NCBI GenBank assembly: GCA_965655095.1
Contig: OZ296652.1
Coordinates: 74,896,001 to 74,960,000, forward strand
Direction: 5' to 3'
DNA from: Haplodiscus bocki
Taxonomy: Eukaryota
Length of the DNA: 64,000 nucleotides
How positions within the stretch are numbered: position 1 is the stretch's first letter; the number at the start of each line of letters is the position of its first letter. Made by a program: the position numbers and the translations under genes. The notes beneath the pieces were generated by a model, which was not told the origin of the DNA, searched no databases, and saw only the letters and a program-made list of their open reading frames with translations. This document shows positions 1 through 50,400 of this stretch, piece after piece.

Positions 1-458
1 CAAATCTTTAAGATCGTTATATCCAACTTTTTTTAATTCTTGAAGTATCTCATATTTTTGATTATCAAAATCTGATAATTTATATTCTTTGCCTCCTATC
101 TTTATTATATTACTCTTTTTCTAACTTCTTCCACATGTAATTCAAGAGATTTGAGCTCTAATAATTTATTTAAGTCATCAATAATTTTTTCAGCAAATTC
201 GGTTTCGTAATGTCCTGGTATAATTATTGAAAATGAATTGTTATCATCAGTTATATTAAAAACAGAATTTGTACATTCGAACGAAGACACAGCAATTAAT
301 CATTTACCTTCTTCAATCAGATTAGTTGGTGGATTAAACGAAAAAGTTTGCATTTGCTTATTCATTTTAAATTCAAGAGTCTCTTGTGGTTTTGTTCTCG
401 TTTGCTCTATCAACGTATCGGTGTGTTTTTTTATTAAAAGTAGTAATTTATTATTCAT
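1..458 (-). pseudogene. Polinton-like minor capsid (penton-like) protein, N-terminal part, disrupted
   Basis: ATG at 458 is in frame with ORF 105..290 and reads MNNKLLLLIKK...FSFNPPTNLIEEGK*LIAVSSFECTNSVFNITDDNNSF. This resembles the P-x-x-L-x-x-x-x-x-W...N-I-x-x-x-N-N-x-F N-terminus of Polinton pentons. In-frame TGA at 302-300 falls at the expected Trp, and a frameshift near 112 leaves an open frame running off the window. Confidence 0.55.
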
Positions 459-652
459 TTAAGTATTGCAAATCCACTAGCTGTGAAATCTTTAACAAAT
501 TTTTTATTATTTTTTGCAAATTTTTTGTTTTGTTTGCCTCCTCCTGAAACAGGTTGAATTTTTTTATTTTTTGTTGTGTTTTGTTTAATTTCTTTTTCAG
601 TTATTGGAATATATCTAACACTATTGTCAATTGTTATTTTTCTCAAAGTCAT
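455..652 (-). CDS. Small basic protein, candidate virion core/DNA-condensing protein
   Basis: 65 aa, very Lys-rich, TAAATG start, contains VSGG-G. Its stop overlaps the next ATG (ATGA). Function is inferred. Confidence 0.5.
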   Translation of the reverse strand: MTLRKITIDNSVRYIPITEKEIKQNTTKNKKIQPVSGGGKQNKKFAKNNKKFVKDFTASGFAILK

Positions 653-707
653 TTATAATATTTATTATTGTATAATTACATTTATCCGAATACGAATAAG
701 AAATATT

Positions 708-1124
708 TCAAGAAAGTCTTTGATAATATAAATTCAAAACAGCTGATTTAAAATCCATACCTAACACTTTTGTTAAATAAATTATATATAAACAATAACT
801 TGCACAATAACTATCATTTTTTTGAATCTGATATTCTGAATATAAACAATATCCATTTCGTTTTATGATAAATTTAGATAGTTTCTTTGGAGGTGTAATC
901 CCATATGAATCAATATAGTGTTCGTGAATATATAAAACCCAATGTGTTCCTTTTGATGGATGTAAGTTTACAATGCCAATATCAGATTCAAAAGGTCCGT
1001 CTCTTAAATAGATCCCTATATCATTCAAACACAAAGATGAAAGGATCTGTTGAATTTTTATATTTGATGTTGCTTTGTTTTTCAAATTGTGTTTTTTAAT
1101 AAAATCATTGAATGTCGGTATCAT
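708..1124 (-). CDS. Adenain-like (C5 family) maturation cysteine protease
   Basis: Intact 138-aa ORF with catalytic motifs in the order seen in adenovirus/Polinton proteases: GTHWV (His), IDSYG (Asp), QIQ...SYCASYC (oxyanion Gln, Cys). Confidence 0.9.
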   Translation of the reverse strand: MIPTFNDFIKKHNLKNKATSNIKIQQILSSLCLNDIGIYLRDGPFESDIGIVNLHPSKGTHWVLYIHEHYIDSYGITPPKKLSKFIIKRNGYCLYSEYQIQKNDSYCASYCLYIIYLTKVLGMDFKSAVLNLYYQRLS

Positions 1125-1294
1125 TTAAACACTCATATAAATGTATGTATAAATATACGTATAGTTGTATGTATTACTCATATTAATATATGTATCAATA
1201 CCCATATATTTATATGTATAACCGGAATTTATATTCTCATAAACACTCGTATAAATGTATGTATACATAAATATAATTACTCGTATAAATAAAA

Positions 1295-1729
1295 TTATGT
1301 ATTATCTTCTGATAAATCACCTCTTCTCCTTGTAACAAACAAAAAATCTTCTAAAACTTTATCAGCATTCTGAAAATTATCAAATAAACCTTTATCATAT
1401 AATATTTGTATGGTCGTTTTTACAGCTCTTTGAATTAAAATTTCTTCTACAGATTGTTTGTTGTATTGTAATTTAAATTCGTTAAAATCTTTTTCTAACT
1501 TTGATAAGTGTCCATCTATTTTCAATAATTTTTCATCTAAATAACCTTTGTTTATAACATCTTCGTTATCGATAGGTTTAAAATTTGTTGATATTTTTTC
1601 ATCTTTTTTATAAGTATCGTGTACTTCAAGTTTTAAATTATTGATATTCAAATCTTGTAATTTATCTCTTTTAGAAACGATGTTATCAAATTCGCTTTCC
1701 CATAGTTTATTATATGATATATAAGCCAT
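1295..1729 (-). CDS. Viral hypothetical protein with a fibre-neck-like motif and coiled coil
   Basis: 144 aa, TAAATG start. PIDNEDVINKGYLD resembles the P-x4-D-x-x-N-K-x-Y-V-D motif of trimeric fibre/adhesin stalks and is followed by a heptad-like helix. Confidence 0.6.
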   Translation of the reverse strand: MAYISYNKLWESEFDNIVSKRDKLQDLNINNLKLEVHDTYKKDEKISTNFKPIDNEDVINKGYLDEKLLKIDGHLSKLEKDFNEFKLQYNKQSVEEILIQRAVKTTIQILYDKGLFDNFQNADKVLEDFLFVTRRRGDLSEDNT

Positions 1730-1761
1730 TTAAACAATAATAAACATACAATATCAAAAAA

Positions 1762-2100
1762 TTAATTTTGTTTATTCATCTGTTTTTTCATCCTAAACAT
1801 AATCAAATCAGCTCTTTTCTTGTCATCGATACCTTTTAATAACTTCGCTTTTGATTCTTCTAACCATTTTTGATCATATTCTCCTATTTGATTTTTCAAA
1901 ACATCATTTTCTGTAGATAATTCAATTAAGTCATCACCTAAGACGTTGAAAGCTTTTTTGATTGCTGGCATCATAGCTGTTAACTGTTCTCCTTTCTTTG
2001 CTTGAGTCGATAGCGATTGTTGATTAAATTCTTTTAAGTCTTGTATAGTATCATTTCTTACTGTTTTATCATTAGAGCTCAATTGCATAGCTAATTCCAT
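1762..2100 (-). CDS. Viral hypothetical coiled-coil protein
   Basis: Intact 112-aa ORF, TAAATG start, helical composition, tightly packed in the gene cluster. Confidence 0.6.
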   Translation of the reverse strand: MELAMQLSSNDKTVRNDTIQDLKEFNQQSLSTQAKKGEQLTAMMPAIKKAFNVLGDDLIELSTENDVLKNQIGEYDQKWLEESKAKLLKGIDDKKRADLIMFRMKKQMNKQN

Positions 2101-2536
2101 TTAAATATTATTATTCTTAAGTATTTTATCTAAATAGTGTTCATTAATTTCATCATTCTCTTGTATGGATCCACCTTTTAATTTGTTCTTTTTATTTTTA
2201 ACTCTTTCGTTTGAAGTCGTCTTGACGTCATTTGAGGTCATTTGAGGTCTTTTGAGGTCACCAATATCGTCGATTTTAGGCTTTTTCGGTCGTTTTTTTG
2301 GTGTTATTAGGGGTAATTCTGTATGGTGAAAGCATATTTATATCGTTTCGATATCTTTTTATAGTAGAAGAAGACATATTTAATTGAGATGATATCTCTG
2401 ATTGTGTCATTTTTGGATTCTGATATTTGATATTCATGAAATCGTTCATAAGTTTCAATTTATAATATTTAGTTAACATATTAGGATCCATAGTAGAATT
2501 TTTATTTATTTCGTTTAAAGAAGGAGTATTGTTCAT
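2101..2536 (-). CDS. Helix-turn-helix DNA-binding protein split by a 1-nt homopolymer frameshift
   Basis: PKMTQSEISSQLNMSSSTIKRYR is an HTH-like pattern. Removing one base from the T7 run at 2293-2299 extends the ORF (...DLKRPQMTSNDVK...NKLKGGS...KNNNI*) to a TAA that directly abuts the next ATG at 2100. Confidence 0.65.
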
Positions 2537-2759
2537 TTATATATTTTAATAATAATATTATAAGTATAAACACTATAAATATAAGCATAATTATATACAT
2601 CCATAAGTTTTTATTTTGCTTCTTTGTGACATCAACAAAATTGACATATTCATGAATCAAATTCGTTTTAATGTTCATTAAAAAAAATATTCATACAAGT
2701 ATATAAAATTGATATCGCTAAAAACGATGATGATGATAGTAACGATTTTTAAATTATAA

Positions 2760-3266
2760 ATGATAAATCAATCAATTTATTTAGTATCGTATGTTGATAT
2801 GATTATATATTTATTATTGGTTTTTACAAATAAAAAAAGAGCTCAAATTTATTCATATCCGAATATAGAAAACAATAACAAACAAATAAAATTACTCATC
2901 GAATTTAATTATCAAAAATTATATAAACTAAATAATTATAAATTCAATAAACCAAATATGATACCTCAGAGAGATCGTTTTTTATTTAGGATTAGTGATA
3001 AAACATATATCCATATAGGTAAAAACGTTTTCACATTCAACAGCAATTCAGAAATAACCAAATACAAAGCTGATATTCGTAATGATAATGATTTTGAGCA
3101 TCCGTATGCTTATGATGATAAATTTTTATACAATCTTGTTGATTATAAATATGCACCTATTGAAAATTATAAAAAATCAAAACAAAAAAACGAATATGAT
3201 TATTTTTATAACTCGACAAGGATGCCGGGTAAAAAATTAATGAATCTTAAGTTTTTAGATAAATAA
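2760..3266 (+). CDS. Viral hypothetical protein, divergently oriented
   Basis: Intact 168-aa ORF with TAAATG start. The YIHIG..VFTF....I.KY......ND..HPYAYD pattern is reminiscent, from memory only, of hypothetical proteins in large DNA viruses. Confidence 0.6.
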   Translation: MINQSIYLVSYVDMIIYLLLVFTNKKRAQIYSYPNIENNNKQIKLLIEFNYQKLYKLNNYKFNKPNMIPQRDRFLFRISDKTYIHIGKNVFTFNSNSEITKYKADIRNDNDFEHPYAYDDKFLYNLVDYKYAPIENYKKSKQKNEYDYFYNSTRMPGKKLMNLKFLDK

Positions 3267-3736
3267 CCAAATTTTCAACATATTAAATGGCAGTTACTTT
3301 AAATAAAAAAATTAATCTTATAATCCCAAAAAAATGTAATCACAATCTTATTATTCCAAATTATAATAATCTAGGTTATGATCTTATAATACCAAAAAAT
3401 AATGAATGTAATATTATTATTCCAAATATTTGAAAATCGTGATTATATAAAAACCAAGGTATACTTACATGAATTCAAATACAAATAATAAAATTTGTTT
3501 AAATACTCATATACTTGTAAGTATATCTCTGGTATACGTACAAATATAAATGTATAAAGAAATTATAAATATTAATTGATATTGTATAATTACACTTATT
3601 CAAATATGAATAATCATATAATTATACGTATACTTGTATGAATAATTTAACATATTTTATTTATTCATATTTTTGTATGAATACTATTTTGTAATATTAT
3701 AATTATACTTATACTTGTATAGATAAGTATAAATTT

Positions 3737-4036
3737 ATTTTCTCGAAAATGGTAATAGCTACAAAGCTGAAATTTTCAGCGTAAACTTAGTTTTTAACGA
3801 GCTATCCAACGATGTCTTACTTGTATTTGTAACTTGAAATTTTATAATCTCTACATGTTTAAGGTTATGACGTCATTTCTGTTTTTGTCAATTTTCTCGA
3901 AGATTATAATAGATACAATGTTGAAATTTTCAGGGTATACTAAACTTTTAACGAGCTTTCTAATGGTATATCATTTGTATTTGTAGCTTAAAATTTTATA
4001 ACCTCTACATGTTTAAGATGACGACATTTCCTGTTT
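3737..4036 (+). repeat. Two diverged ~154-bp tandem units
   Basis: Units start ATTTTCTCGA at 3737 and 3891. Both contain TGAAATTTTCAG, TTTTAACGAGCT and CTCTACATGTTTAAG. Confidence 0.85.
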
Positions 4037-4429
4037 GTATTGCTCAGAAATCGTTTTTTTGCGTAATAAGCTAAAAATATCCACTGGCCAACTTTCGTGT
4101 CAGGCTTTTCAGCTATCTATCGAGTGAGCATTCCTGGTGGATATCCCCATCGGTCTTTTCCTCTTTTTCAAGCAACAAGACATGGACAGTTCCTCCATAT
4201 AGCTTTTGCGCGTGATGTTACAAAGACAGTGGGACGTTGGATAATCGTGAACCACAAACACGACGACTATACAATTAAGCACAGCCTTAACTTTAGTCTA
4301 TGTAACAAATACCACTAGGCTATATGGAGACGAAATAGAAAAGGAAATACTAATATAAAATTACACGTGCAAGTTCATTTTACCATTACTTTACAATTTT
4401 ATGTTTACGTAAATATGAAATCATATGTT

Positions 4430-4665
4430 CATGCTTTTTTACAAAATTAAATTTTCTTTCCTGTGTACCCCCATTGATATATAAATGATAAAGTGTTTTT
4501 ATAAAATTACAAATTCTTTCCTGTGTACCCCCATTGATAAGACTACTCAAAAAATTTTTTACAAAACTAAATTTTCTTTCCTGTGTACCCCCATTGACAT
4601 GTAAATGAAAAAATTTTTTTATAAAACCACATTTTCTTTCCTGTGTACCCCCATTGACATAGATT
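4430..4665 (+). repeat. Four 60-bp tandem units
   Basis: Invariant core TTCTTTCCTGTGTACCCCCATTGA recurs with an exact 60-bp period. Confidence 0.95.
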
Positions 4666-4679
4666 ATTTTTATGTAACT

Positions 4680-5172
4680 TTCACTGATTTTTACTAATTT
4701 TACACAAATTCCACTGATTTTTACTAATTTCATGTGATTTTTACTAATTTTACTAAATTTACGTATTTTTAACTGTTTTTTTACTGTTTTTTACCGTTTT
4801 TCACTGTTTTTCACTGTTTTTCACTATTTTTTACTGTTTTCATTGTTTTTCACTGTTTTTCTCTGTTTTTCACTGTTTTTCACTGTTTTTTACTGTTTTT
4901 CACTGTTTTTCACTGTTTTTCACTGTTTTTCACTGTTTTTCACTGTTTTTCACTGTTTTTTTACTGTTTTTCACTGTTTTTCACTGTTTTTCACTGTTTT
5001 TCACTGTTTTTCACTGTTTTTCATTGTTTTTCACTGTTTTTCACTGTTTTTCACTGTTTTTCACTGTTTTTCACTGTTTTTCACTGTTTTTCACTGTTTT
5101 TCACTGTTTTTCACTGTTTTTCACTGTTTTTTACTGTTTTTCACTGTTTTTTACTGTTTTTTTACTGTTTTT
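4680..5172 (+). repeat. 10-bp minisatellite (TCACTGTTTT)n with a degenerate left edge
   Basis: About 40 near-perfect copies from ~4770, preceded by diverged ACTGATTTT/ACTAATTTT variants. Confidence 0.97.
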
Positions 5173-5819: not shown

Positions 5820-8800
5820 CTTTATCAATCTTTTCAGAGAGCAGTGAGTTACAAGAGTACACGCGGCTGCCGAACGCTGGCGCTCCCTTATAAGTTAACA
5901 GCAGGCGTAATATTCAATCGAAGGCGTAGTTTTTGTCCACAACCGTAATTTTTGTCCGCGTTTACCAATTTATCCGACACGTTTCAATACATTGAGTGGC
6001 CGATCGCCAAAGTCTTTGAAAATTCGTTTTTCTAAAGTTTTGGTGCTGAAACTGTACTTATTGATCTTTAACTCATTGCAACAATACGTTTCATTGCATA
6101 AACACAACGTTTCTGTATATCTAGGTTTTTCTTCAGAGGGAGCTTGTTCCCTCTTCTCATGTTTCCTGTGTGCGTTGCAGCACCTTCTGGGAAAGAAGTT
6201 GTCTGTTGCGTCGGTGGTGGAAGAGTGTGAAGTCTCTCGAGCGCATCGCGTTCCAATTGTCCCGTTTTTTTTCGGTAGAATATCGTACTCCAAGTTTTTC
6301 CACGACACACCTAACTAGAGAACATCGTTGTCTTTTTAATTTTTTTCATTTTTGTTAGTGTCACAAAACGTCTTGAAGAAGTTCCGACAAAGATCCAACA
6401 TCCTCATAATAGCATTATATATATGAAAGACTCCAGGAATGATTGGTTTTCATGCTCAACTTCGGGCTTCACCGGTTCAAGTTCGTACATTTTACTAATG
6501 AAGGTGATTCAGATGCCTGACATTTTTACTATTTGAAGAATCGTGCCCTTTTTCAATATTCGAGTACTTTTTCATTTTGTGTCTTCTCCAATCCTTTGCC
6601 TGATATCCACATGAGCTTTTGGGTTGCGGTCTTGTAGTCTCAGCTGCGACACCTGAGTTCAGAATTTCATCTCCATGACTGCTCCCAATCAAGACAGACT
6701 GTCCAAAGCTGTCGAAACGCTTTTTGGGAGTGTATTGAACGAAGCGATGAATTTTCTTGCACACCAGTTCAAGGATGCAGTAAAACAAAAGTAACGGTGT
6801 GGTGGGCGTTCTTTTGGTAAATGCAAGCCGGATATAAGCATTTTTCTGGACTGAGAGAATATCTTTGTTTTCTGCATATTCTTTCAGCAAGCTTTCAAAA
6901 TCTTCCTTACTGACTACGGTTTTTTTGAAAATTGGAGGGAAAGTTGAAAAGTGGGGACGCACATGTTCAGAAACTTCAATATCACAATGAGTGTCTCCAA
7001 AGAGCATCCCCTCGACAATTCTTTGCATGAGTCGATCTTCACTCAGAAGAAGGGTATGTGGCAGAATTCCCTGAAAATGCCTTTTGACTGATGCGATATT
7101 TAAATAGAGACTCCACCACTGGCACTCACACAATTCTACAAATCGATATCCCTTCTATTGAATATAAAGCCTGCGCTTCTCGTCTTGCTCCATTTTCTAG
7201 ACCTACTCCCAATAATTATACAGTCAGTAGATGTTGTGCTTCTCAAGAAGGACAGTAATGATGAAAACATCGCATAGCTTCAAAAGCAGTGATACAATGA
7301 TTGCATAATTCGTCTACACCAAAACAATCAATTTTTCTGACTAGAAGTAAAGTTTCTCTCGATTTTATAGTCCTGTCCTTGTCCTTGAAAGTTTGAGAAC
7401 CATATTCTCTACGGATTGGGGTTTGCTTTGGTGAGCTGTGAATTTTTCAGTTCAACTCCCACCTCGTATACAAACCAGTATGCATTGATTGACACATTGC
7501 GTGGGGATAACGCTGGCTAGGATCAAAACCAACAACAGACTTGCACCGACTTGTTGATTCCCGTATAAAAATTTAATCTACTACAGCTTCACGGGTAAAG
7601 ACCATCGATGGCAACGTCTTCTATTTTTTCAAGCAAATCCTCATCCATTCCAGTGAGGGGATAAAAACAGGTTGTTGATTTACGTAAACCAATTTTGTCC
7701 AAAATGGGTATCGTGCATTCAAGGTCCTCTTCTTGTGGTACAAATCGGTCATTTTCTGCAGTGTTCCCAATGTTGGAACACAACCTTGTTTGTTATACTA
7801 ATTATGAAAAACTGCAAAAGAGGGGATTAACTCGTTTTCTCAGACCATCTGCCAAAAGCTGTCAACTTCTCCAGTTGGCGGTACTTAGACAATTATTGAC
7901 TGGGCTACTGCTTGTGTTCTCGTTACACCATTCTTAAAAATGTTTTCAAATCGTTAGTTTTGTTCTTGGAGATGACTGTTGCGGAGGATGCTGAAGAATA
8001 GGTGATTAGACGGAATTTCTTTTGTTATTCATTCTATCTGTACCAGCAAACCATTCATAGGGGAATAGCCCATTTTGTCTGGTTTTCAGAAGACAGTTAC
8101 GAGTTGTGGCAATACCGAGGAACTTCATGATATCAAGTACCGGAATCTCCTGGAATTTGAGAAACGAAAAAGATAATTAGCCTTCCTTTTAACCGTCGGT
8201 TCAATGTCTCGTTCATTTACTAGAGTCGATCAAAAAAAGGACTTGATCAGAATATTATGTAAATTGCGCTCCTGAAACCAAAGACCTTTAACACATTCCA
8301 GTACAGTCTAAAGTATTTCTGTAGATCAATCGATTGCTTCTTTTGCTGTAGCAGGAACTGGGTAAACAGATCTTGTTCCACAGAGTCAGCGGTACAATCG
8401 CCAACAAAACCTATCATTATTTCTGCTTGATTGATCTAGTTAGTGTACCACACTGTTTTATCTTGATTCCTGTCTCAACTTCTAGAAAAATCAATTTACA
8501 CTGAGCTTTGCTTCGCGTAACAAATCATTCCGGAGCTGTAATAAAGCATGGGACGAAATAATGGGGACAAGTAATGCAAAAGAAAAAAAGGCTCAGGAAT
8601 CAAAGTTGACCGTATAGAAACTGTCTTCAGTAAATGCTTCCCGATCCAATTTGTAGTTTCAATTCCTTGTATGAGACATTTTTAACAGAGATCGATCTAC
8701 AAGCAAACATTGCGAATTTCTTGAACGGTCTTCTCTCATTTCTATATTGGATATTGAATCAATCTATTGTTTTAAAGAGTGTTTCTCAGTTTCTAAACGT

Positions 8801-27614: not shown

Positions 27615-28646
27615 ATGCAACCTCCGCTGCTGCGTTCAGCGATGACGCGGTCTCTCTTTCAAGTCCTCGTGTTTTGTTCCGATGTTTTTTACCCTTTAGT
27701 CCCAGTCACAGGCCAGGTTGCCAAGAATCTTGAAGTTTCTCAATTTGACTGCGGTGCAATGACAGAAAATACTCTCCATGCTCTCAACCCGGTACGACAA
27801 TGCCACATTACACCCGAAGAGCTGGAAATTAGTCGGACGAAAATCATTCTTTACACTAAGCACTTCCAAAAATAAAAGAACGCGACAAAATGTCGAATAC
27901 AGCACCAGCGAGAAACATGTCACTGCGGACATAACAACCACAGCAGCATTGATCACACTGAAGCCAGAATTACCAGCAACTTAGTGATCTCACCAGAACA
28001 TTGCCGATCTCTTGCGAAACGAAAGATGGTTTATCTGGTTGAGCGTTTTTTGGGAGTTGTGTACAATACAGAGAATCCTATTGTAATCACAGACGGTTCT
28101 ACGTGCGATAAAAATAGAAATCACTGCACCGCACCTGGTTGGATTACCCGCCATACCTTCCTCCCTCATCTGCCACGAACGACACTAAAAATCAGAATAT
28201 CGACAGGTAACGTTTTGTCCGACTCTGCTCAAGTATTGCCATGTGCACTGGAAGAGTTGTGTTGCGAGACAAGTTCGTTGGATCCTTACGCCTACATATG
28301 AGACTACCCGCAGAATTGTTTCTTTTCAGTCCTCCGAACAGAAGATGATAACATGCTGAAACAAAAACCAAAATATGATATCTTCAGTGGACCCGACTCA
28401 ACAACTAAAATGGGTTCGAAGTTAAAAACAACCCTCAAAAACATTGTGGAAAACCGACAGATATTTATCCAACAAATTACGATTCATTTTAAGTGGAAAT
28501 CATCAATGGAGGCTTCGACTTGAGAACTGGAAGGAATCTTGGTAACTAACGGAATGGTGTTACTCACGTTTTACAGTATATAGCACCCACTGAGAGCAAC
28601 GGATTTGCCCGAGTCTATGCATACGATCCGAAACATACGCAGCACG
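27615..28646 (+). pseudogene. env: Envelope glycoprotein, chuvirus-G-like, 3'-truncated
   Basis: Hydrophobic leader, then the cysteine pattern FDC...C...TKCRIQHQRE..CGHNNHSS...SPEHC...NHCTAPGW...LPCALEELCCETSSLDPYAYI*DYPQNC. This parallels the YDC...QCKV...CGMHSH...C..G.C...FW...C pattern of chuvirus glycoproteins. Contains stops and a frameshift and is cut off by the 3' LTR. Confidence 0.7.
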
Positions 28647-35439: not shown

Positions 35440-38400
35440 TTAAAATCTGTAGTCGTCATTACAATTTGGCTTTGGATTATGATGTAGGTCATATTTTGAG
35501 CTGCGGGGCTTGCTAGGCGTAGGGTCAGGTTGCTCTACACTAGCATCCGCATTAAGTAAGTATTGATCCGCATCCGTTCCGTCATACGATCTGTCTGCCT
35601 GCGGGATAATTTCTGCGGAACTCTCGCTTATGGTTCCCGAAGTGCTCCTCATTTCATCGGTTGGTTCATCAGATCGTATTGTGATTTCGGGTGAATTAGG
35701 TGTTACAGAATTATTGTAATCGCTATCAGATAGTGGCTTGTCATATTCACACTCCCATGCTCTGGCGTATAAATCATCATGTTTAATGATAACTTCCGGA
35801 TCTGGTTGTCAATCGCGCGGTGTGATTGGTATATCCGGTATGGGTTGACAAGGTGTGAATTGGCGTAGCCTCAATCGATGAAGTATTTGCGTCTTTTTGG
35901 TGCCAATTTTGCGTACCAAATAATTGTTGTTCGGTAGCACCTTTTCAAAAATATAAGGTCCAATGCACCGAAAAACTGTAAAAGGAATTTTGCTTCCTTG
36001 GTGATCTGCTCTTGGTTGTAACACGTAAATGTAAGCTGTTTTTTTTAAGTTTTGAGGCGTTGGCTTTTTTATCATAATACGCTTTGTCATTGATATAAGC
36101 TTGCATGGCATTTTTGCGGACATCTTGGAAAATCATTTCCGTCTGTTCAAGCAAATCTTGGGCAACTTGTGAGTCTTGAGAGGAATTTTTGTGGACGAAT
36201 ACCCACTTTTGAATCAAGGATGTTATAGGGAAAGCGTCCATGAAACACTCTGTCGCATCACATCCAATACTCGAGTGATAAGAGGTGATGTAATTAAGGA
36301 CTGCAATGGTGACGTACTTAGGCCACAGTGATCTCCACTCGCCTGTCTCTATCTTCAACGCCTGTTTGGTTGACGCGTGAGATCTTTCAAGTAGCCCAAT
36401 TATTTGAGCGTGCTTTGTAGTGGCGTGCTTCAGAGTAATGCCAAGGACGCCAGACACTTCTTTATTTACATATAACACAAAGTCTGTGCCTTTATCTGAG
36501 ATGAGTGTCGTTGGTAAGTAGGCGTGTTTGGTCTTGATGTCATTAGCGATTGTCTTGGTGTCCTGATTTGATGTCAGGTATGCAAATAAGTAGCGGGAAA
36601 ACACGTACATGGCTGTCAAAATGTTTTGATAGCCATCTGACGGAGGTAATCCCGGTACCCAATCAATTTGCATGGCGTCTTCTGGCGCAGCGCAGTAATG
36701 TACTCATTCGGGTCTTGCAGGGGAGTGCGGGTGAGTCGGGGATTAATCCGTGATTCTCTGAGCCATTGCTCACATGACATAACTCAATCCGTGATTAGTT
36801 GAGCCATTTTTGGGTTTTAATACTTTTCTCTGTATGCAATTAATGTTTTGATAGTTCCAGGATGTTTCCCAAATCCCCGTGGAGACTCCGGAGTACTTCG
36901 TTTACAAGCTACTTTGGTAATGAGAATTTGGTAGTATTTGGCGCTACCAGTTTCCCCGTAGTATTTCCGGAATAGGAGTCCATCTTTGAGGATAATGCGA
37001 CTCTCGTTTGCTCTGTAGTGCTTAAATCGTCTGTCCGTTGTCAATAGCACATCATCATCTGGTTGGCCAAGTACTTTGAGTTTCAGGTCTTCAGTACTAG
37101 ATCTGCATCCTCCTCTATTTGTATTCGTGCACTTGCTTTAATTCCGTTGATGGAATACGACGTAGTGTTTCCGTCGATCTTTGTGAACTCTTAAATAGTT
37201 GGCTTCATTGAGGATGGTTCCTGATTTATTACCCATTGTGCTGCCTTTTTCTGAGATTGTAAGGATCTTTTCTTCGGTTTCATCTTGACCATCTGCTTGC
37301 GCGAAGAAGAACTGTTCTTCATCTGCAACATCTGAGGAAGAAGTTGACACCTCTATGGGTGTTGTTTGTACATCCTCCCTGATTTTGAGATGGAACTTCT
37401 CCGTGACTTTCTTTTTTAATCTGGAGAGAAACTCAGCTGCTGTGTTAACTGAACCAGCGATATGTGCTACATTGAAGTTAAACTGCAGCACATGATCACA
37501 TGCGTTTCACAGGGATGGTGGAATAGCTTTTGTCTGGAAGAACCGGGTGACTGATTTATTGTCCGTTAAGACAATCGTCAAATTTGTTGTTTCTCACAGA
37601 ACGTGTGCAAACTCAAGAAAAGCCATGTGGATTGCCAAAAAATTTTTGAGTTAATTGACATCTTGAGCTGTGCGGGGAAAAGACTATTGATCCAAACGCG
37701 ACGGATGCGTATGTTTTCCATTTTGATTGGATATTTTGGTCCGGGTTATCTTCAATCATGAGAGCATAGCGTGCGCTTCTGAAATTTGCATCAGTAATTA
37801 GGACTAGCTGTTTCCCAGGAAGAGGTTGTTTCAGTGCTAGTTCGCAAGCATCACTCAGTGCTTTGTTTACTGAATCAAAGGTTTCTTTCAATTCTGATGT
37901 GGCGTTGATCGGGACTTCTGCTTTCAAAATTTTGTATAAAGGATTGAGATTTTCAGCCGTTGTGGGAATAAGGTTTCTGTAAAAGTTTACGAAGCCCAAA
38001 TAGCGCTGCAAAGCGTCTTTCGATTTGGGAATTTCAGTTTACTTAGGAAGTTCTGAATGTTGTAAGATTGTGGTAATACTCCCTCGGATGAAATGGTTCA
38101 CCCTAGTAATTCAACTTGTCTAACTCCGAAGTGGCATTTCTCAATTGTCAGTTTCAAGGGTGCCTGGCGAATACACTTGAAGACTGCCCGAATGTTCCGG
38201 GAAAGGTCCGTAGGGTTATTGGCTGCAATTCCAATATCATCCACATATTGAGCACATTGGTCACCTTTGACAACTGGGTCCAAATACTCGCGCATGTAGC
38301 TCGAAAAAGCAGACACAGATCTGCTGAGACCTTGCGCAATTCTTCTGTAGGCAAAGGTTCTGCTAGCAAAATTGATGCATGCATTTCCAGCGAACGTTGG

Positions 38401-40290
38401 TCCGCTATCTGCAAGCAGTGATACGCTTGAGAGCAGTCAAGCTTACAGAATAATGACTTCCCTGCCAGGTTTTGTGCTGCATCTGACAAAGAGCCGACAG
38501 GGTGATTATTGTTAATGTAATCATCCGGTATCTGAGTGTTGATTTTCCTGAGATCCACAACGAGACGTAGTTTTCCGTTGGGTTTCCTCTGTGTAAAAAT
38601 GGGACTTGCATATTTTGAGAACGGTAACACTGTGATGATCCCATATTTGTGGATACTGGCAAGCTCAACAATTATATCGTTTTTCACGTGGGTGGCTTTG
38701 GCTGTAGACACCTTTATCATCCTTTGGTGTTAGTGTCACCTTGAATTCTGTGTTCTTCCCGATATCCATTCTATGTCTAGCAAATATGTCATGATATTCG
38801 ACTAGAATATCTTCGACTGCGTGTAATTCAGTTTTTGTGAGCAGTGAGTCCGTCCAATCAAATCGCTTTAAGAATTCCTTTCGTGATTGCATGTCATCTT
38901 TCGGTTTGAGTTTTTCTTTTAGTTGCAGTTTAAGATTCGTGTTTGAATTGGGGTATGATTCTCTATGTTGCCAGGATTTTCGGGTGTCGGAAACCAGAAA
39001 GTAATGTTTTGCTGGTCTGGTTTATTGGTTCTGAGTAGTTCAGACAGGTAAGTAATCAGATCTGGGTCACCTTCGTGAATCATACTAAGAATTGCCATAT
39101 CTACTGGATTGATAAACTTGGATTGCTTCGGAGTGAATACGGCAAATTCGGCACTTTGTGTGTTCTTGTTGACTCTGTAAGGTTATTCCGTCGTGTTGGT
39201 GACTCCTATTACTATCTTTCTGTCAATTATTGTTGACATTGAATAGGATAATATGAGACTCGCGCTTTCTGTGATTTTTTACTGGAGTCACTGTCCCTGT
39301 TCTATTCCATTCTGATAAGTGGTCAACAAATGCTGTGATTGTTTTTTTGTCATTTCTGGTATTGTTATACTATCGTGGATGAGAACAGGTTGGGGTATAG
39401 CACTTCTCTGACTCAAAGCACTTTTGACTTGCATTGTCAAATGTGGGAAGTGGATGAGGCCGTGTGTGGTATGGATGACCACACTGTTATGTTTGATAAA
39501 GTGCAACCCTATAATTGGTCCTGTCAGTTTCTCCATCAAGACGAAATGTTCTGCAAAGATGTGTTCTCCAATGTCAAATTTAAGTGCGGCTGTTGCTTTT
39601 GGCTTTTCTAACTGGCCATTTGTTACTTGAGTTTGAAAGTTAGGAGTTTCATTGATTTTTAGGATTTTAGATGTAGCTTGTTGTTTAATTCTATCTAATT
39701 CTTTCTGAGCTATTCCACTGAGATAGGCTTCCGAGTCAGCAAATGCATCTTATTTCAAGCCATTCTCCAAATCCAAAGGGACATACAACATTTCACTCTT
39801 TCGTTCTAGGACAATTGTGGAGGATAGTGGGATGTAGAGTTCATTGGTAATATCATCCCTCACAAGTCGTTCTTCAATTTGTGAAGTTGTTATTTTGTTA
39901 GGGGAAATGTTATCATCTCCATTGTCATAGGTTGTCATGTGGGTTTCATTTCGTTGGATTTCATGTTGCTGCTCCCTGGAGTCATTGGGGCAATATACTG
40001 GCGCACTCACAGTTTGATTTCCTGGGATTGGCTCCGTACTGGATCCGGATACTTGGGATGAGGTTTTGTTCATTGGCGACGTTTCTGATTGTACATCATT
40101 TCTCTGTTTGCATTCGGGCATGTGGGTATTTTTATGAGTTTCAGTAGTTGAAGTTTTTTGAATATTAGTTAAATGAGTCTCCTGAGGTTGCTGCCAGACA
40201 ACCTCTGGGATTGGGATTGGTGGACGTGTTGAATGAGTTACCTCCGGTCTGTCAATCGCAGCTCCGGAGTGAAGACGTGGCATTTTCTGT
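35440..40290 (-). pseudogene. pol: pol of element A (PR-RT-RNase H-integrase), many stops and frameshifts
   Basis: FADSEAY (decayed protease D-S-G-A, ~39735); RT motifs YASPIF..RKPNGKLRL, KLDCSQAY, QYVDDI; RNase H LITDA and TDNKS; integrase QIDW, ISDKG, GLLERSH; GPY module. Confidence 0.93.
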
Positions 40291-40503
40291 TTAAGTTTTA
40301 GGCTGCAGCCTGAGTAGTTTCATTCGAGTCATTCTGGTTGGCTCTTTCTTGTACCTGATTTTGTCTTTCCGGTCTTCTCTGCCGGGGAGGCGGTCTATTT
40401 GCTGAATTGGCTCTGTTGTAACATTTCTCTGTGGAATGGTTTGTCTTGCCACATGTCTCACGGGGTGAGTAAACAGTTTTTGGCTTTCTTTCGGCTCGGT
40501 TAC

Positions 40504-40537
<34 letters not shown>

Positions 40538-41954
40538 AAGATTGTTGACGTTGCTGTTGGAGTTAGATGTATTGGCGTCACTGTTTTTGTTTCCAGGATT
40601 TTTTTTGGCTATTATCAGTTTGTTCTCACTGTTTTTTCATTAATCGACACTGATTTCTGAAAAGTCCCTGTTTTTTACAGTGGTGGCACGTTGGTTTGGG
40701 TCTGTCAGCATTTAGATTTGCAGTATTGTGGCTCACAGTTTTTCTCTGTAGCTCATCAGGGGCTTCCAAACCGTTCAGCTCTATTTCCTTTTCTAAGTGT
40801 GTGACAATCTGCTCATATGTGCCATTTTCCAGGTGGGCCTGATTTATTGATTTTTTCAGGTGTGGTGGCATTTTGGCGTATATGAAATGTTCAAGAATGG
40901 CGTGTGCAGCAATTCCGAATGCGTCTTTAGCCAGTCTTTGAAGTTCATCAAGGAAATCTACTAACTTTTGATTTGTTGGGTTGAAGACGCGTTTTTGGAA
41001 TTTGTGTTTCGCTGTTGCCATCGACCGGGGTTTCACATACTTCCCTCGGAAAACTATTTCTCCCAAAATCTCTCGGGTTGGGCCATTATTGTTTTTAAAG
41101 TTTTGTAGCGCATCCCCCCGCATGAGAGAGTGGAAGTAATTGTTTCTGTCATCGTCTGTCAGCCGATTAGGAACTTTGAGGCTCATTTGATTTTCAAACA
41201 GCTCAAATTTCTCAGATTTCCCGTCAAACGTGGGCCTCGTTGTGGTGAGTGACTTTGGCAGTTTGGAATTTTTGTTGATGTTACTATGAAAATTCGCAGA
41301 ATTGTTGTTATTTGCCAACTGCTGAAGGGCCAGCAAAATTTGGTTTCCTTCGATTGTCGCAGGAGTGTTCTCGCTGCCAAATTGCGGCGGATTGGTGGAA
41401 AGGTTCTTTTTCTGCTCTCCTGAAGATGTACTAGGGGAGCAGTATGTGACTTCCTCGTGGACTCCTGTCATGTCGTGGCAGTTGCCAAGCTGTTCTGTAG
41501 TTCCTGTCGCTATGTCGTGGCCGCAGAGGCTCTCTTCTTGAACTCCTGTCACCATGTCTTGGCAGTCTCCTAGGCCAGAGTTCTGCGTCGTCTGGCCGTG
41601 GAAAAAGCCCGCTTCAGGATGAAAATCCTTCTGGGAATCGTCCCCATTCGTTCCCTGGCTTGAACTCAATGCGTTCCGGGAGGCCTCCGGAGTTGTTCCG
41701 AAGTAGCCTTGGAGTAGCGGTTTCATGAGAAAGTCGTCGAGACGTGCTAATGCGCCTAGTATGCGGTTTTTTGTTCTGCGAAACTCCTTTGACAACCTTT
41801 TTGTGACCCTTCCCTCAATTTCTTCAGAAACTTGAGTTATTGAATCTTAGTGCGATCTGGGAGCATTCGAGTTTTGTGCCAAGTTGCTCCTAGGATGTTC
41901 CTCACAGTTTTCTTTGTTTAATGCTGCCAATTTTCTCTTGTTTCGAGTTGCCGT
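40291..41954 (-). pseudogene. gag: gag of element A
   Basis: Start decayed to ACG (41954) followed by ATRNKRKLAAL. ORF 40626..41795 has PTFDGKSEKFELFE and knuckle CHHCKKQGLFRNQC; a second knuckle CETCGKTNHSTEKC follows. An (AAC)n poly-Asn tract lies at 40503-40537. Confidence 0.9.
41540..41554 (-). promoter_or_regulatory. Primer-binding site of element A
   Basis: TGGTGACAGGAGTTC immediately follows ...CAAGACA, the position homologous to the solo-LTR end. The cognate tRNA was not identified. Confidence 0.65.
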
Positions 41955-47415: not shown

Positions 47416-50400
47416 AAACGCCGCGTCTTGACTCCGGAACTGCATGTGACAGAGCGGAAATATTTAACACATCAACTTTTCCACCAATTCTCCCGGTTGT
47501 CTGGCAGCGAACCCCCCAGAGATTTACAGATCAAGGCAACTTAAATAACATCAATATTGACTCTACAAAATAATACACTAAAGAAATTTCAAAGACAACT
47601 GTAGCAAGCCAACGGTCGCCACCCATGGGAAGTCAACCAGAGAACTACGTTGTTGCCACGGAGCGATCTCCAGGAAATCAAACAGGGAACGAGCCAGGAA
47701 CGTCCTTTAACTGCTCAAAGAATCGTCCTACCGATATCCAAGTTTCAGAACAACACGCAAAGACCACCTTCACTGGAGGTACAACATCTCCACCTCTCAC
47801 GATAACAACCCCACTGATCGAGGAAGGGCTGGTGAGGGATGAACAGACAAATGAATTTCATCTTCCATTAACCTCTACAGTAGTCCTGAAACAAAAACAA
47901 GAAAGGCTTCAGGATTTCGCGAATAACCAAACAGTATATGCTTTGGTAGACCCAAGAGCCTACGTCAGTGCAATTTCCAGAACGGCTTGGACACAAAAAA
48001 AACAGAACGCCCCACATAATGTTCTCAAAATCGACGGCTCTCCAAAATTTCAAACACAAGTAGGCAAGGGCCAGTTACAAAAACTGTTAGCAACGGCCAC
48101 GCTCAAAATTGAATTTGGAAACAAAATCTTCCCTGAACATTTCGCTGTAATGAAAAATTTAGCAAGACCGATAATAGAGTTGCATTTTATGAGGAACAAC
48201 AGTGTAGTCATTGATACGAAACACGGCCTCATACATTTCCCACAGTTGACGATGCAAGTCAAAACTGCTTCAAATGAAACAACCGCAAAAGCCCGGTCAA
48301 TCTTCACTAACTATATTCTAACGATACCACCCAGCACCACAAAAACAATCCTAGCCTTTGTTGACCATCCGTCAGAATGGAACACAACAAGGACCGTGAC
48401 ACCACTGGAGATGTTTATGGAAACGGCAAGTTTGCTGATTTCACACTCAATGTCGACAGGAGTTCATAAAAGAATAGCAATCAGAGTAACGAAGACAACG
48501 GAATCACCATATCTAATCAAGAAGAATACACAGATTGCAGGTTTCTCCGTAGTCATTCCGTAGCAATCCAAGCACATTAAACCAGTAGGTATCGCAGTCC
48601 TCAGTATGATTCCAAAAATTGATCCTGACCTGACTGCCTATCTAAACGAATTACTCACAACGAATAAAACCGAGCAGCAAAACAAGATTTTTTGGTTCTC
48701 GACACCTGAAATTTCTGGAAACCCTGAGGATGACACCCCAATACAGAAACGAATCAGCAAAGAATCAACTGAACTCAGAGATAAAGAAAAAACTCAATCC
48801 AACAGAGAGCACAGAATCCCAAACAAATTCCTCAAACGATTTGATTGGACTGACACACTTCTAACGGAAGCAGAGAAACAAGCAATTGAAGATATCCTGG
48901 TCGACTATCATGACATTTTCTCCAGACGCAGAGTGGACATTGGGAAGAACGCGGAACTCAAGATGAAACTAACCTCGAAAGACAACAAAGCTGTACACAG
49001 CCTAAGTCTACCAAGGCCAATCCACAAGAAAGAAGACATCATTGTTGAATTAGCTCTGATGCACAAATGTGGAATCATCAGGGTACTGCTTTTCTCCAAG
49101 TACGCAAGTCCCATATTTGCACAGAAGCCCAACAGAAAATTACGTCTCTTTGTGGATCTCAGGAAAATCAACACCCTGATTGCAGATGACTATACTAACA
49201 ATATTCAATCAGTCAGCACTTTGTCAGATGCAACGCAGTTCTTGGCAGGGAAGTCACTCTTCTGCAAATTAAACTGCTCCCAGGCTTCTCACTGTTTGCA
49301 AATGGCGGACCAACGGTCAGTGGAAATGCTTGCATTCAATTTTGTCAGCAGAACTTTTGCGTACAAAAGACTTGCACAAGGTTTCAGCAGATCTGTGTCT
49401 GCTTTTTCGAGCTTCATGCGCGAGTACTTGGACCCAGTTGTCGAAACTGACCAATGTTCTCAATATGTGGATGATATTGGAATTGCAGCCAATAACCCTA
49501 CGGACCTTACCCGGAACATTCGGGCAGTCTTCAAGTGTATTCGCCAGGCACACTTGAAACTGACAATTGAGAAATGCCTCTTCGGAGTCAGACAGGTTGA
49601 ATTCCTAGGGGCAACCATTTCATCCGAGGGAGTATTACCACAATCTCATAAAATTCAAAACTTTTTAAAAAAAGTGAAATTCCCCAAATGCAAAAAGGCT
49701 TTGCAGCACTATCTGGACTTCGTAATTTTTTACAGAAAATATATTCCCAGAATGGCTGAAAAGCTCAACCCATTCTAAAAAAATACCCACTCAAAACGAA
49801 TAATCCCGAGCAGCAAAACAATACTTTCTGGTTCCCAACACCTGAAAAAGCTGGAAAGCCTGACGATCACACCCGAATACAGACACGAATCCTCAAAGAA
49901 ATAAATGAACTCAAGGAGAAAGAAAAAATCAATCGACAAGAGAGTACAGAATCTCGAAACAAATTTCTCAAAGGATATGATTAGACTGACACACTTCTAA
50001 CCGAAACAGAGAAGTAAGCAATTGAAGAAACCCTGGTTGACTATCTAGACATTTTCGCCAGACACAGAATGGATATCGGTATGAACACAGAACTGTAGGT
50101 GATACTAAGTCCGAAAGACGATAAAGCCGTCTATAGCCAAAGTCTGCCCATGCCAACCCACTTGAAAGAATACCTAATTGTTGAATTGGCTCTAATGCAC
50201 AACCATGGAATCATCACAGTACTGCCTTTCTCCGAGTACGCAAGTCCTAATTTTGCAAAAAGGAATCCCGACGGAAAATTACGTCTCCTTCTGGATCTCC
50301 GGAAAACCAACACTCTGATTGCGGATGACTATACTAACAATAATCATCCAGTTAACACTCTGTCAGACGAAGCACAACACTCGACAAGGAAGTCATTGTT

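Follow-up and report, generated by a model that had tools for sequence, protein, structure and literature searches.

All seven genes in view of an AT-rich Polinton-type element begin at the word TAAATG. Six of the seven starts recur, with order kept, in a syntenic, diverged relative from metagenomes (L002, 76% protease identity). The placement of TAAATG at these starts is non-random and conserved in the relative, and the word is supported as a signal that does not arise from contact between stop and start codons. It has the form of a poxvirus late initiator.

Genes and features of the element

Within the window, the 64,000-nucleotide stretch of DNA analysed here, TAA lies directly 5′ of the ATGs at 458, 652, 1124, 1729, 2100 and 2536 (minus strand) and 2760 (plus strand), as the first-pass annotation had reported. 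That annotation spoke of all seven genes of the element; the statement holds for the seven in view, but the element passes the left window edge (position 1) and shows one end only. Because the edge cuts the element, any genes for a protein-primed PolB polymerase, rve integrase, packaging ATPase and double jelly-roll major capsid are out of view. The features of positions 1-5172 are as follows.

1..458, minus: penton-like gene, 5′ part; sister copies encode 356 aa; broken here and cut by the window edge
456..461, minus: TAAATG of the penton-like gene; ATGA overlap, TAA read within the upstream gene across Leu-Lys codons; L002 has the same at 1900
455..652, minus: 65-aa basic protein; orthologue at L002 1706-1903
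650..655, minus: TAAATG, 55 nt past the protease stop (6 nt in L002)
653..707, no strand: AT-rich spacer; 49 nt of it missing in L002, omitted by some contigs
708..1124, minus: adenain-type cysteine protease, 138 aa, Polinton maturation protease; His61, Asp72, Cys107
1122..1127, minus: TAAATG behind a 170-nt spacer; in L002 it lies inside the upstream ORF, overlapping by 17 nt, with TAA in another frame
1125..1294, no strand: AT-rich spacer, missing in L002; its plus (antisense) strand has three ACTC(A/G)TATAAAT boxes
1295..1729, minus: conserved 144-aa protein; L002 856-1302
1727..1732, minus: TAAATG, 32 nt after the upstream stop; L002 reads TAA TAA ATG
1762..2100, minus: conserved 112-aa protein, no known family; L002 517-852
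2098..2103, minus: TAAATG; sole case in the window with TAA as the upstream gene's stop
2101..2536, minus: helix-turn-helix protein gene; Pfam HTH_24, E 2.3e-5, above cut-off
2534..2552, minus: TTATTAAAATATATAAATG; identical in L002, DNA further upstream diverged
2757..2762, plus: TAAATG of the divergent gene, directly at the 2760 start
2760..3266, plus: 168-aa gene; same start in sister copies
3267..5172, no strand: non-coding AT-rich end region; tandem arrays of 154, 60 and 10 bp

The genes were defined by homology and not by the motif. The protease, the 458 gene and the 2760 gene share their N-terminus with sister proteins, and 132/133 sister proteases and 119/120 sister penton-like proteins carry no N-terminal extension, an indirect sign of the start. 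Since sister N-termini match for these three and six of the seven starts recur in L002, all seven are real genes, as first annotated, although two of them (the 458 and 2536 genes) are broken in this copy.

Assignment of the element to the Polinton/Maverick type (Polintoviricetes), made in the first pass, is supported by the adenain-type maturation protease, the Atlas features of the 458 product and the many integrated copies in a eukaryotic genome. The protease matches a Peptidase_C48 protein (HHalign 96%, E 4.7e-9), its model (pLDDT 80) finds the adenovirus protease 4wx4 as best PDB match (prob 1.0, E 0.012), and its top BFVD matches are the Tetraselmis virus 1 protease, Sputnik V9 and an adintovirus adenain. 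The catalytic motifs are present in 113, 115 and 111 of 120 sequences. Protease homologues form 3651 clusters, the best 120 of which are 83-100% identical and lie on contigs up to 900 kb, and 60,647 and 69,983 contigs were placed in two runs of organism A.

The 458 gene has 2002 sister matches among 2215 candidates, with a length of 356 aa in 85 of the best 120; in this copy its reading frame is interrupted by a stop at 300-302 and shifts near 114-120. A TAAATG at 303-306 is internal to this broken gene and was rejected as a start. Its product has Atlas features of 0.97 to unnamed Preplasmiviricota/Nucleocytoviricota clusters at a recognition value of 2070, below the 2300 mark, and its fold model is uninformative (pLDDT 37.8, no structural match). 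The product is likely the minor capsid protein (penton), in Polintons a single jelly-roll protein, and we take its C-terminus to resemble Polinton pentons.

The 65-aa basic protein, which matches no family at E 0.1, is possibly a core protein, and a family search with the 144-aa protein gave nothing above cut-off. The helix-turn-helix gene is split here into 2536-2276 and 2241-2101 (two frames) and is a single 151-aa ORF in L002. A 47-aa ORF (1268-1125) was rejected as a gene; it is low-complexity spacer and missing in L002. Sister copies of the 2760 gene make up 12 clusters out of 36 candidates, and two of these clusters comprise 77 and 181 members; the gene has no family and no usable Atlas match and is likely accessory cargo; positions 2794-3234 of this region were without cover in runs X5 and X6, a gap that proves nothing. 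Sequence searches of solved structures returned nothing meaningful. The region 3267-5172 probably holds the element terminus, at a boundary that is not fixed.

TAAATG is enriched at gene starts

On both strands of positions 1-3300, 12/121 ATGs are preceded by TAA: 7/7 gene starts and 5/114 others (Fisher p 1.3e-8). The start contexts of the relative, which the first pass had suggested tabulating, give TAAATG at 6/6 starts and 2/55 other ATGs (p 5e-7); since window and L002 sites are orthologous, the 13 starts cannot be counted as independent. Any ATG directly behind a stop necessarily comes first in its frame; corrected for this bias, the chance of TAA before a start is 0.079 per gene, 1.9e-8 for all seven and 3.9e-5 for the four junctions beyond the reach of stop-start contact. 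Chance in AT-rich DNA combined with the choice of genes could draw on the TAA share of spacer trinucleotides (5.6%), but is refuted by both p values and by a gene set fixed by homology.

Position −3 is T at 13/13 starts, a poor context for scanning ribosomes. UAAAUG might be the preferred start context of host ribosomes or of very short host 5′ UTRs, common to host genes and ordinary Mavericks; the comparison covers L002, one giant-virus locus and the rest of the window, so TAAATG may be common among Polintons or in this host. We hold this explanation to be improbable: eukaryotic contexts favour a purine at −3, and the word begins 0/30 ORFs of at least 100 aa in the rest of the 64-kb window, a poor control made up mostly of decayed retroelement frames, and 0/13 in an AT-rich giant-virus locus.

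TAAATG is independent of upstream stops

If the minus-strand run were one polycistronic message translated by termination-reinitiation, TAA-ATG would join stop to start, or would guard in frame against an extended N-terminus. Six genes do lie on one strand, the commonest stop is TAA (4/6 in the window, 3/5 in L002), and the five internal starts of L002 are offset from the upstream stop by 0, 3, −17, 6 and −4 nt, all within −17 to +6 nt as coupling predicts. The TAA of the start word, however, is the upstream gene's stop in only 1/7 starts of the window and 1/6 of L002. One or two couplings had been allowed for in the first pass; direct contact occurs in the window at 2100 only, and the 458 start is an ATGA overlap in which TAA is not the stop. 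Stop-to-start gaps range from −17 to +170 nt, the latter before the intact protease gene of the window copy, and TAAATG also precedes the opposite-strand gene and the 2536 gene, first of the minus-strand run with no upstream gene in reach. A guard could equally be TAG or TGA, yet TAA is found in 13/13. Translation coupling is accordingly a quite unlikely source of the word.

The window-L002 alignment picks up again at TAAATG after each of three indels. Some contigs omit the same spacers (joints 657-707, 658-708 and 1729-1762), weak evidence given that the joints were placed at 80% likeness. Because TAAATG is retained inside overlapping genes and next to gained or lost spacers of 32-170 nt, we regard it as a signal in its own right.

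A candidate poxvirus-type initiator

We tentatively propose that TAAATG combines an initiator with the start codon and is recognized by the poxvirus-type polymerase of a helper virus. Each gene would be transcribed into a separate mRNA, with initiation at the three A's and slippage of the polymerase producing an untemplated poly(A) leader; this leader would make up for the absent 5′ UTR and the unfavourable T at −3. This mode of starting would let genes abut or overlap and AT-rich spacers change harmlessly. Copies integrated in host chromosomes would be expressed mainly with the helper present, like protist endogenous virophages, and the polymerase would come from a co-infecting large DNA virus. 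We infer all four parts of the proposal: initiator role, leader, polymerase type and helper.

The vaccinia late initiator is TAAAT(G/A) and overlaps the start codon, according to PMC5294985, an identity that the first pass had recognized; the same word covers the start codon at 7/7 window and 6/6 L002 starts. In vaccinia the TAAA is read by the viral polymerase core and not by the TBP/TFIIB-like factor, as PMC12917281 describes. Several observations count against a helper: the thousands of integrated variants indicate a nuclear phase and are compatible with autonomous spread, the spacers contain clusters of TATA-like boxes, and the internal L002 starts keep the spacing noted above for coupling. 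The 20 nt upstream are at least 75% AT at 10/13 starts, not clearly above the element's own 76%, and 60-65% at 3/13, unlike the AT-rich core (~20 bp) of pox late promoters. The promoter match is to the poxvirus word, and the only giant-virus locus compared gives 0/13. The upstream regions share no common motif beyond TAA.

An autonomous element could use the same initiator with no helper, host Pol II being steered to it in the nucleus by element-encoded factors. The T-A step agrees with the general pyrimidine-purine start of Pol II; a 2-nt leader is ill-suited to Pol II messages and to scanning. The steering factors may be TBP/TFIIB-like or VLTF3-like proteins encoded in the out-of-view part, or the helix-turn-helix protein; a figure legend of PMC8502044 assigns TBP-like genes to related midsize DNA viruses, and VLTF3 is labelled in coral polintoviruses (PMC11131425). 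Pol II is also favoured by the very high copy number and by TATAAAT/TATAAAC boxes, which lie on the opposite strand within the spacers and ahead of 2536. No TBP- or TFIIB-like gene is found among the seven genes in view, however, and vaccinia TAAA is read by the polymerase itself (PMC12917281), and we consider steering of Pol II unlikely.

The first pass had interpreted the element as a virophage-like parasite transcribed by a large DNA virus rather than as a Pol II-driven Maverick. What stands of this is a motif that is non-random, conserved and independent of stops; against the remainder, Polinton-type elements with their own TBP offer a helper-free route, as a figure legend of PMC8502044 records, and 3/13 starts lack the AT-rich core. 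An animal host, also part of that interpretation, is suggested only by LTR-retrotransposon-type remains and a weak chuvirus-type glycoprotein fragment in the window. That a germline Polinton of a marine invertebrate, in thousands of copies, is the provirophage of an undiscovered poxvirus-like virus, with every gene tied to the pox late initiator and AT-rich promoter spacers exchanged right in front of TAAATG, is a rather doubtful extension of our proposal.

Comparison with known systems

The late/intermediate initiator of vaccinia, TAAAT(G/A) or TAAA, is the same word with the ATG within it and no space for a templated leader, as PMC5294985 and PMC12917281 describe. Here, in contrast, the word belongs to a Polinton-type element that is integrated and shows no polymerase in its visible part, and is used by 7/7 genes in view, the AT-rich core is lacking at 3/13 starts, and the role is predicted from sequence.

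The yeast cytoplasmic virus-like elements pGKL1/2 are not known to integrate. They are likewise AT-rich and compact, and their pox-like polymerase uses a TAAAN initiator and slips to give 5′ poly(A) leaders, but in their case RNA polymerase and capping enzyme are element-encoded, and they have an upstream conserved sequence (PMC6211774). A pGKL-like upstream motif was not found before the element starts.

Mavirus/EMALEs, Sputnik/Guarani and the PLV Gezel-14T are also small dsDNA viruses, some of them multicopy-integrated, whose genes carry a promoter motif in common with the helper; they differ in their protist hosts, their known Mimiviridae-type helpers and their motifs, TCTA-type late (CroV) or AAAATTGA early, which lie upstream of the ATG and are not TAAATG (PMC10945749, PMC6510173 and 10.1101/2022.07.28.501842). 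Two occurrences of TAAATG in virophage papers proved to be primers.

AHEV_PLV1/2 and CBEV_PLV1 are Polinton-like animal elements present in entomopoxvirus occlusion bodies and proposed to be poxvirus parasites; they differ in being ~12-kb contigs from those bodies (PMC11296320), and the main text of that paper makes no mention of promoter, motif or TAAAT. Animal Mavericks/Polintons and adintoviruses likewise have an adenain-type protease, a likely penton and many integrated copies, and vertebrate Mavericks have been proposed to act like virophages (PMC8097293); a search of passages in PMC8502044 and PMC8097293 found no start motif. Our literature search found no report of a TAAATG initiator in a Polinton.

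Implications

Transcription of animal Mavericks/Polintons may be autonomous or may depend on large DNA viruses; their particles and helpers are mostly unseen, and a virophage-like role is only a proposal (PMC8097293). An invariant initiator at the ATG makes a sharp prediction, 5′ ends in AAA with untemplated A's, that would split helper-driven from Pol II-driven expression. A helper-driven element would suggest that a poxvirus-type virus infects a marine invertebrate, and might amount to an inherited antiviral system; an autonomous one would be a Polinton in which the host polymerase initiates in a pox-like manner. Were the provirophage reading true, the start contexts of endogenous Polintons would reveal the helper's class from sequence alone.

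Searches, word counts and surroundings

Searches of viral contigs with the protease, penton-like and cargo queries gave no relative; the single match (L001) is a giant-virus Ulp1-type protease and was kept only as a control. GTDB genomes and phage records likewise held none. At least two metagenome loci matched: L002, which is a genuine relative, and L003, a bacterial sequence that matched spuriously.

AATAAA is neutral (12 seen against 13.1 expected; 9 against 10.2), and AATAAA, ATTAAA, TAAAT and CpG inside ORFs do not differ from synonymous shuffles. TTTTTNT is if anything over-represented in L002 (3 against 0.84) and uninformative on late promoters.

The element has a GC content of 0.22-0.25, against ~0.39 in most of the remaining window, and CpG is depleted in neither element nor flank. 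The window also carries LTR-retrotransposon-type remains and a weak chuvirus-type glycoprotein fragment.

TAAATG at the gene starts of a Polinton-type element

The element at the left end of the window is Polinton-type and AT-rich (GC 22-25% in bases 1-4000, versus about 0.35-0.49 over most of the window past 5000). Seven genes are in view, starting at 458, 652, 1124, 1729, 2100 and 2536 on the minus strand and at 2760 on the plus strand. Because the window edge cuts the element, its genes for polymerase, integrase, ATPase and major capsid are out of view. ORF 1124-708 encodes a 138-aa adenain-type cysteine protease. A 35-sequence protease profile aligned with a Peptidase_C48 protein across the His, Asp and Cys motifs (96%, E 4.7e-9); the protease model (pLDDT 80) is closest in the PDB to adenovirus protease (probability 1.0, with an E of only 0.012) and in BFVD to a Tetraselmis virus protease, Sputnik V9 and an adintovirus adenain. 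The 458 gene covers the beginning of a 356-aa protein (that length in 85 of the best 120 matches), which we read as a penton-like minor capsid protein from its language-model neighbours, unnamed Preplasmiviricota and Nucleocytoviricota clusters (0.97), and from a C-terminus that we take to resemble a minor capsid protein; its fold prediction was uninformative. The 2536 gene encodes a helix-turn-helix (HTH) domain, the remaining four proteins had no family match above cut-off, and the 458 and 2536 genes are damaged in the window's copy. Inverted repeats at 2681-2707 and 3629-3690 (20 nt at 95%) bracket the cargo-like 2760 gene and may be a sign of an exchangeable cassette.

The first-pass annotation had placed TAA directly before all seven start ATGs, and the count agrees (7/7). 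On both strands of 1-3300, TAA precedes 12 of 121 ATGs, comprising 7/7 starts versus 5/114 others (Fisher p 1.3e-8). Any ATG that follows a stop necessarily comes first among the ATGs of its frame; correcting for this bias leaves a chance of 0.079 per gene and 1.9e-8 for seven. The same script found TAAATG at 0/13 starts in an AT-rich giant-virus locus, 0/8 in a bacterial locus, and 0/30 in the remainder of the window, a poor control made up mostly of decayed retroelement frames. TAAATG may yet turn out to be common among Polintons or in the host, which we think improbable. Starts in the giant-virus locus are often preceded by AAA and never by TAA, and its positions 3691-4674 encode a giant-virus Ulp1-type protease. 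Further TAAATG words in the element are:

3284-3433, plus strand: eighth TAAATG, 20 nt past the 2760 gene's stop, opening an ORF of 48 aa that contains four LIIP/IIIP repeats; putative gene
679-684, minus strand: in a spacer, with a stop directly after
1138-1143 and 1252-1257, plus strand: in spacers, both antisense

Conservation and independence from upstream stops

TAAATG is a real, conserved gene-head signal in this Polinton-type element. A related 1941-nt metagenome contig (76% protease identity, six genes, order kept) carries it at 6/6 starts versus 2/55 other ATGs (p 5e-7); its sites and the window's are orthologous and so do not count as independent events, though their surroundings differ. 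When the two are aligned, three indels of 32, about 175 and 49 columns run up to TAAATG or to within a few bases of it, after which identity returns; at the HTH gene, a stretch of 19 nt that closes with the ATG is the same in both. Some contigs also skip spacers 657-707 and 1729-1762, joints that are weak evidence because the contigs were compared at 80% likeness. N-terminal extensions are absent from 132/133 sister proteases and 119/120 sister penton-like proteins, which indirectly suggests fixed starts.

In the window the starts lie 0, 32, 170, 55 and −4 nt from the upstream stop; in the relative the distances are 0, 3, −17, 6 and −4 nt. The relative's compact layout fits termination-reinitiation (translational coupling), an explanation we regard as unlikely. 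One or two stop-start couplings had been allowed for at first pass, and TAA doubles as the upstream stop in only 1/7 cases (1/6 in the relative). The penton-like gene has an ATGA overlap, its TAA being read across Leu-Lys codons; in the relative's protease the TAA lies inside the upstream ORF, out of frame; and the 2536 and 2760 starts have no upstream gene nearby. Taken by themselves, these four junctions give a chance of 3.9e-5.

A candidate pox-like initiator

These data demonstrate that TAAATG heads the genes, is conserved and does not depend on stops; what follows is inference. Start contexts prefer a purine at −3. TAAATG never varies between −3 and +3, its −3 base is T, and no shared motif was found upstream of the starts, so it appears closer to an initiator than to a ribosome context. 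Because of this invariance and parallels in vaccinia virus and yeast elements, we favour an initiator, which TAAATG probably is when all variants are taken together; judged by sequence, it would behave like a pox late initiator. The first-pass equation with the vaccinia late initiator holds: that initiator reads TAAAT(G/A) and overlaps the site where transcription begins (PMC5294985). Within vaccinia's intermediate complex, the polymerase core, not the TBP/TFIIB-like factor, reads TAAA (PMC12917281). In yeast, cytoplasmic elements that have a pox-like polymerase rely on TAAAN and acquire poly(A) leaders via slippage (PMC6211774). Counting against a pox-type initiator, AT content in the 20 nt upstream is only 60-65% at 3/13 starts and at the others not clearly above the element's 76%.

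The initiator could be read by the pox-type polymerase of a helper virus, a tentative reading that we favour over host Pol II steered by element-encoded factors. The Pol II route, which we think rather unlikely, draws on TBP-like genes labelled in related viruses (PMC8502044), VLTF3 in coral polintoviruses (PMC11131425), and TATAAAT boxes clustered in spacers, mostly antisense. Pol II poly(A) signals in ORFs are neither avoided nor enriched (12 versus 13.1 expected, 9 versus 10.2), a low-power test that decides nothing. Following the helper-polymerase reading, the element might, more doubtfully, be a provirophage of an undiscovered pox-like virus of a marine invertebrate.

It is established that mavirus-like elements, Guarani and Gezel-14T share promoters with a helper (PMC10945749, PMC6510173, 10.1101/2022.07.28.501842, 10.1101/2025.10.09.676808); the motifs concerned differ from TAAATG. 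The closest animal precedent is the PLVs present in entomopoxvirus occlusion bodies (PMC11296320; mentioned in 10.64898/2026.06.19.733378); 'promoter', 'motif' and 'TAAAT' are all absent from the main text of PMC11296320. A virophage-like role has been proposed for vertebrate Mavericks, with no promoter data in the text examined (PMC8097293). A literature search over the main texts of mostly open-access papers turned up no Polinton for which TAAATG is described as an initiator; the supplements of PMC11296320 and PMC8502044 may contain start contexts relevant to novelty. In two virophage papers TAAATG occurs within primers. The signal would be best filed as a new form of promoter mimicry by virophage-like elements.

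Abundance, host and repeats

The element family is very abundant, with 3651 protease clusters, 2002 penton-like clusters, and 60,647 and 69,983 matching contigs in two runs of the sample source labelled organism A (4 of 8 runs compared). Two runs of a coral-metagenome sample covered 27/30 bins at 80% likeness. The host may be an invertebrate, judging by remains of retrotransposons and a chuvirus-type glycoprotein fragment that scores below cut-off; a decayed frame, which presumably resembles the C-terminal part of Maverick DNA polymerase, is perhaps from an older, different element.

27876-28298, plus strand: Monjiviricetes (chuvirus-type) fusion glycoprotein-like fragment (Pfam E 2.1e-5, below cut-off)
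35800-41850, minus strand, and 47570-52700, plus strand: decayed remains of LTR-retrotransposon type, including reverse transcriptase and integrase domains
6498-7154, minus strand: decayed 219-aa frame with no Pfam match

AT-rich boxes recur in the spacers and end region of the element, and repeats mark its transition to the host. Spacer 653-699 is 82% like 3563-3613.

1126-1290, 2565-2580 and 3632-3722, mostly plus strand: AT-rich boxes ACT(C/T)(A/G)TA(T/A)(A/G)(A/G)AT and TAAACACT
4435-5172: 60-bp tandem array, then about 40 copies of a 10-bp TTTTTCACTG satellite, where the element gives way to the host
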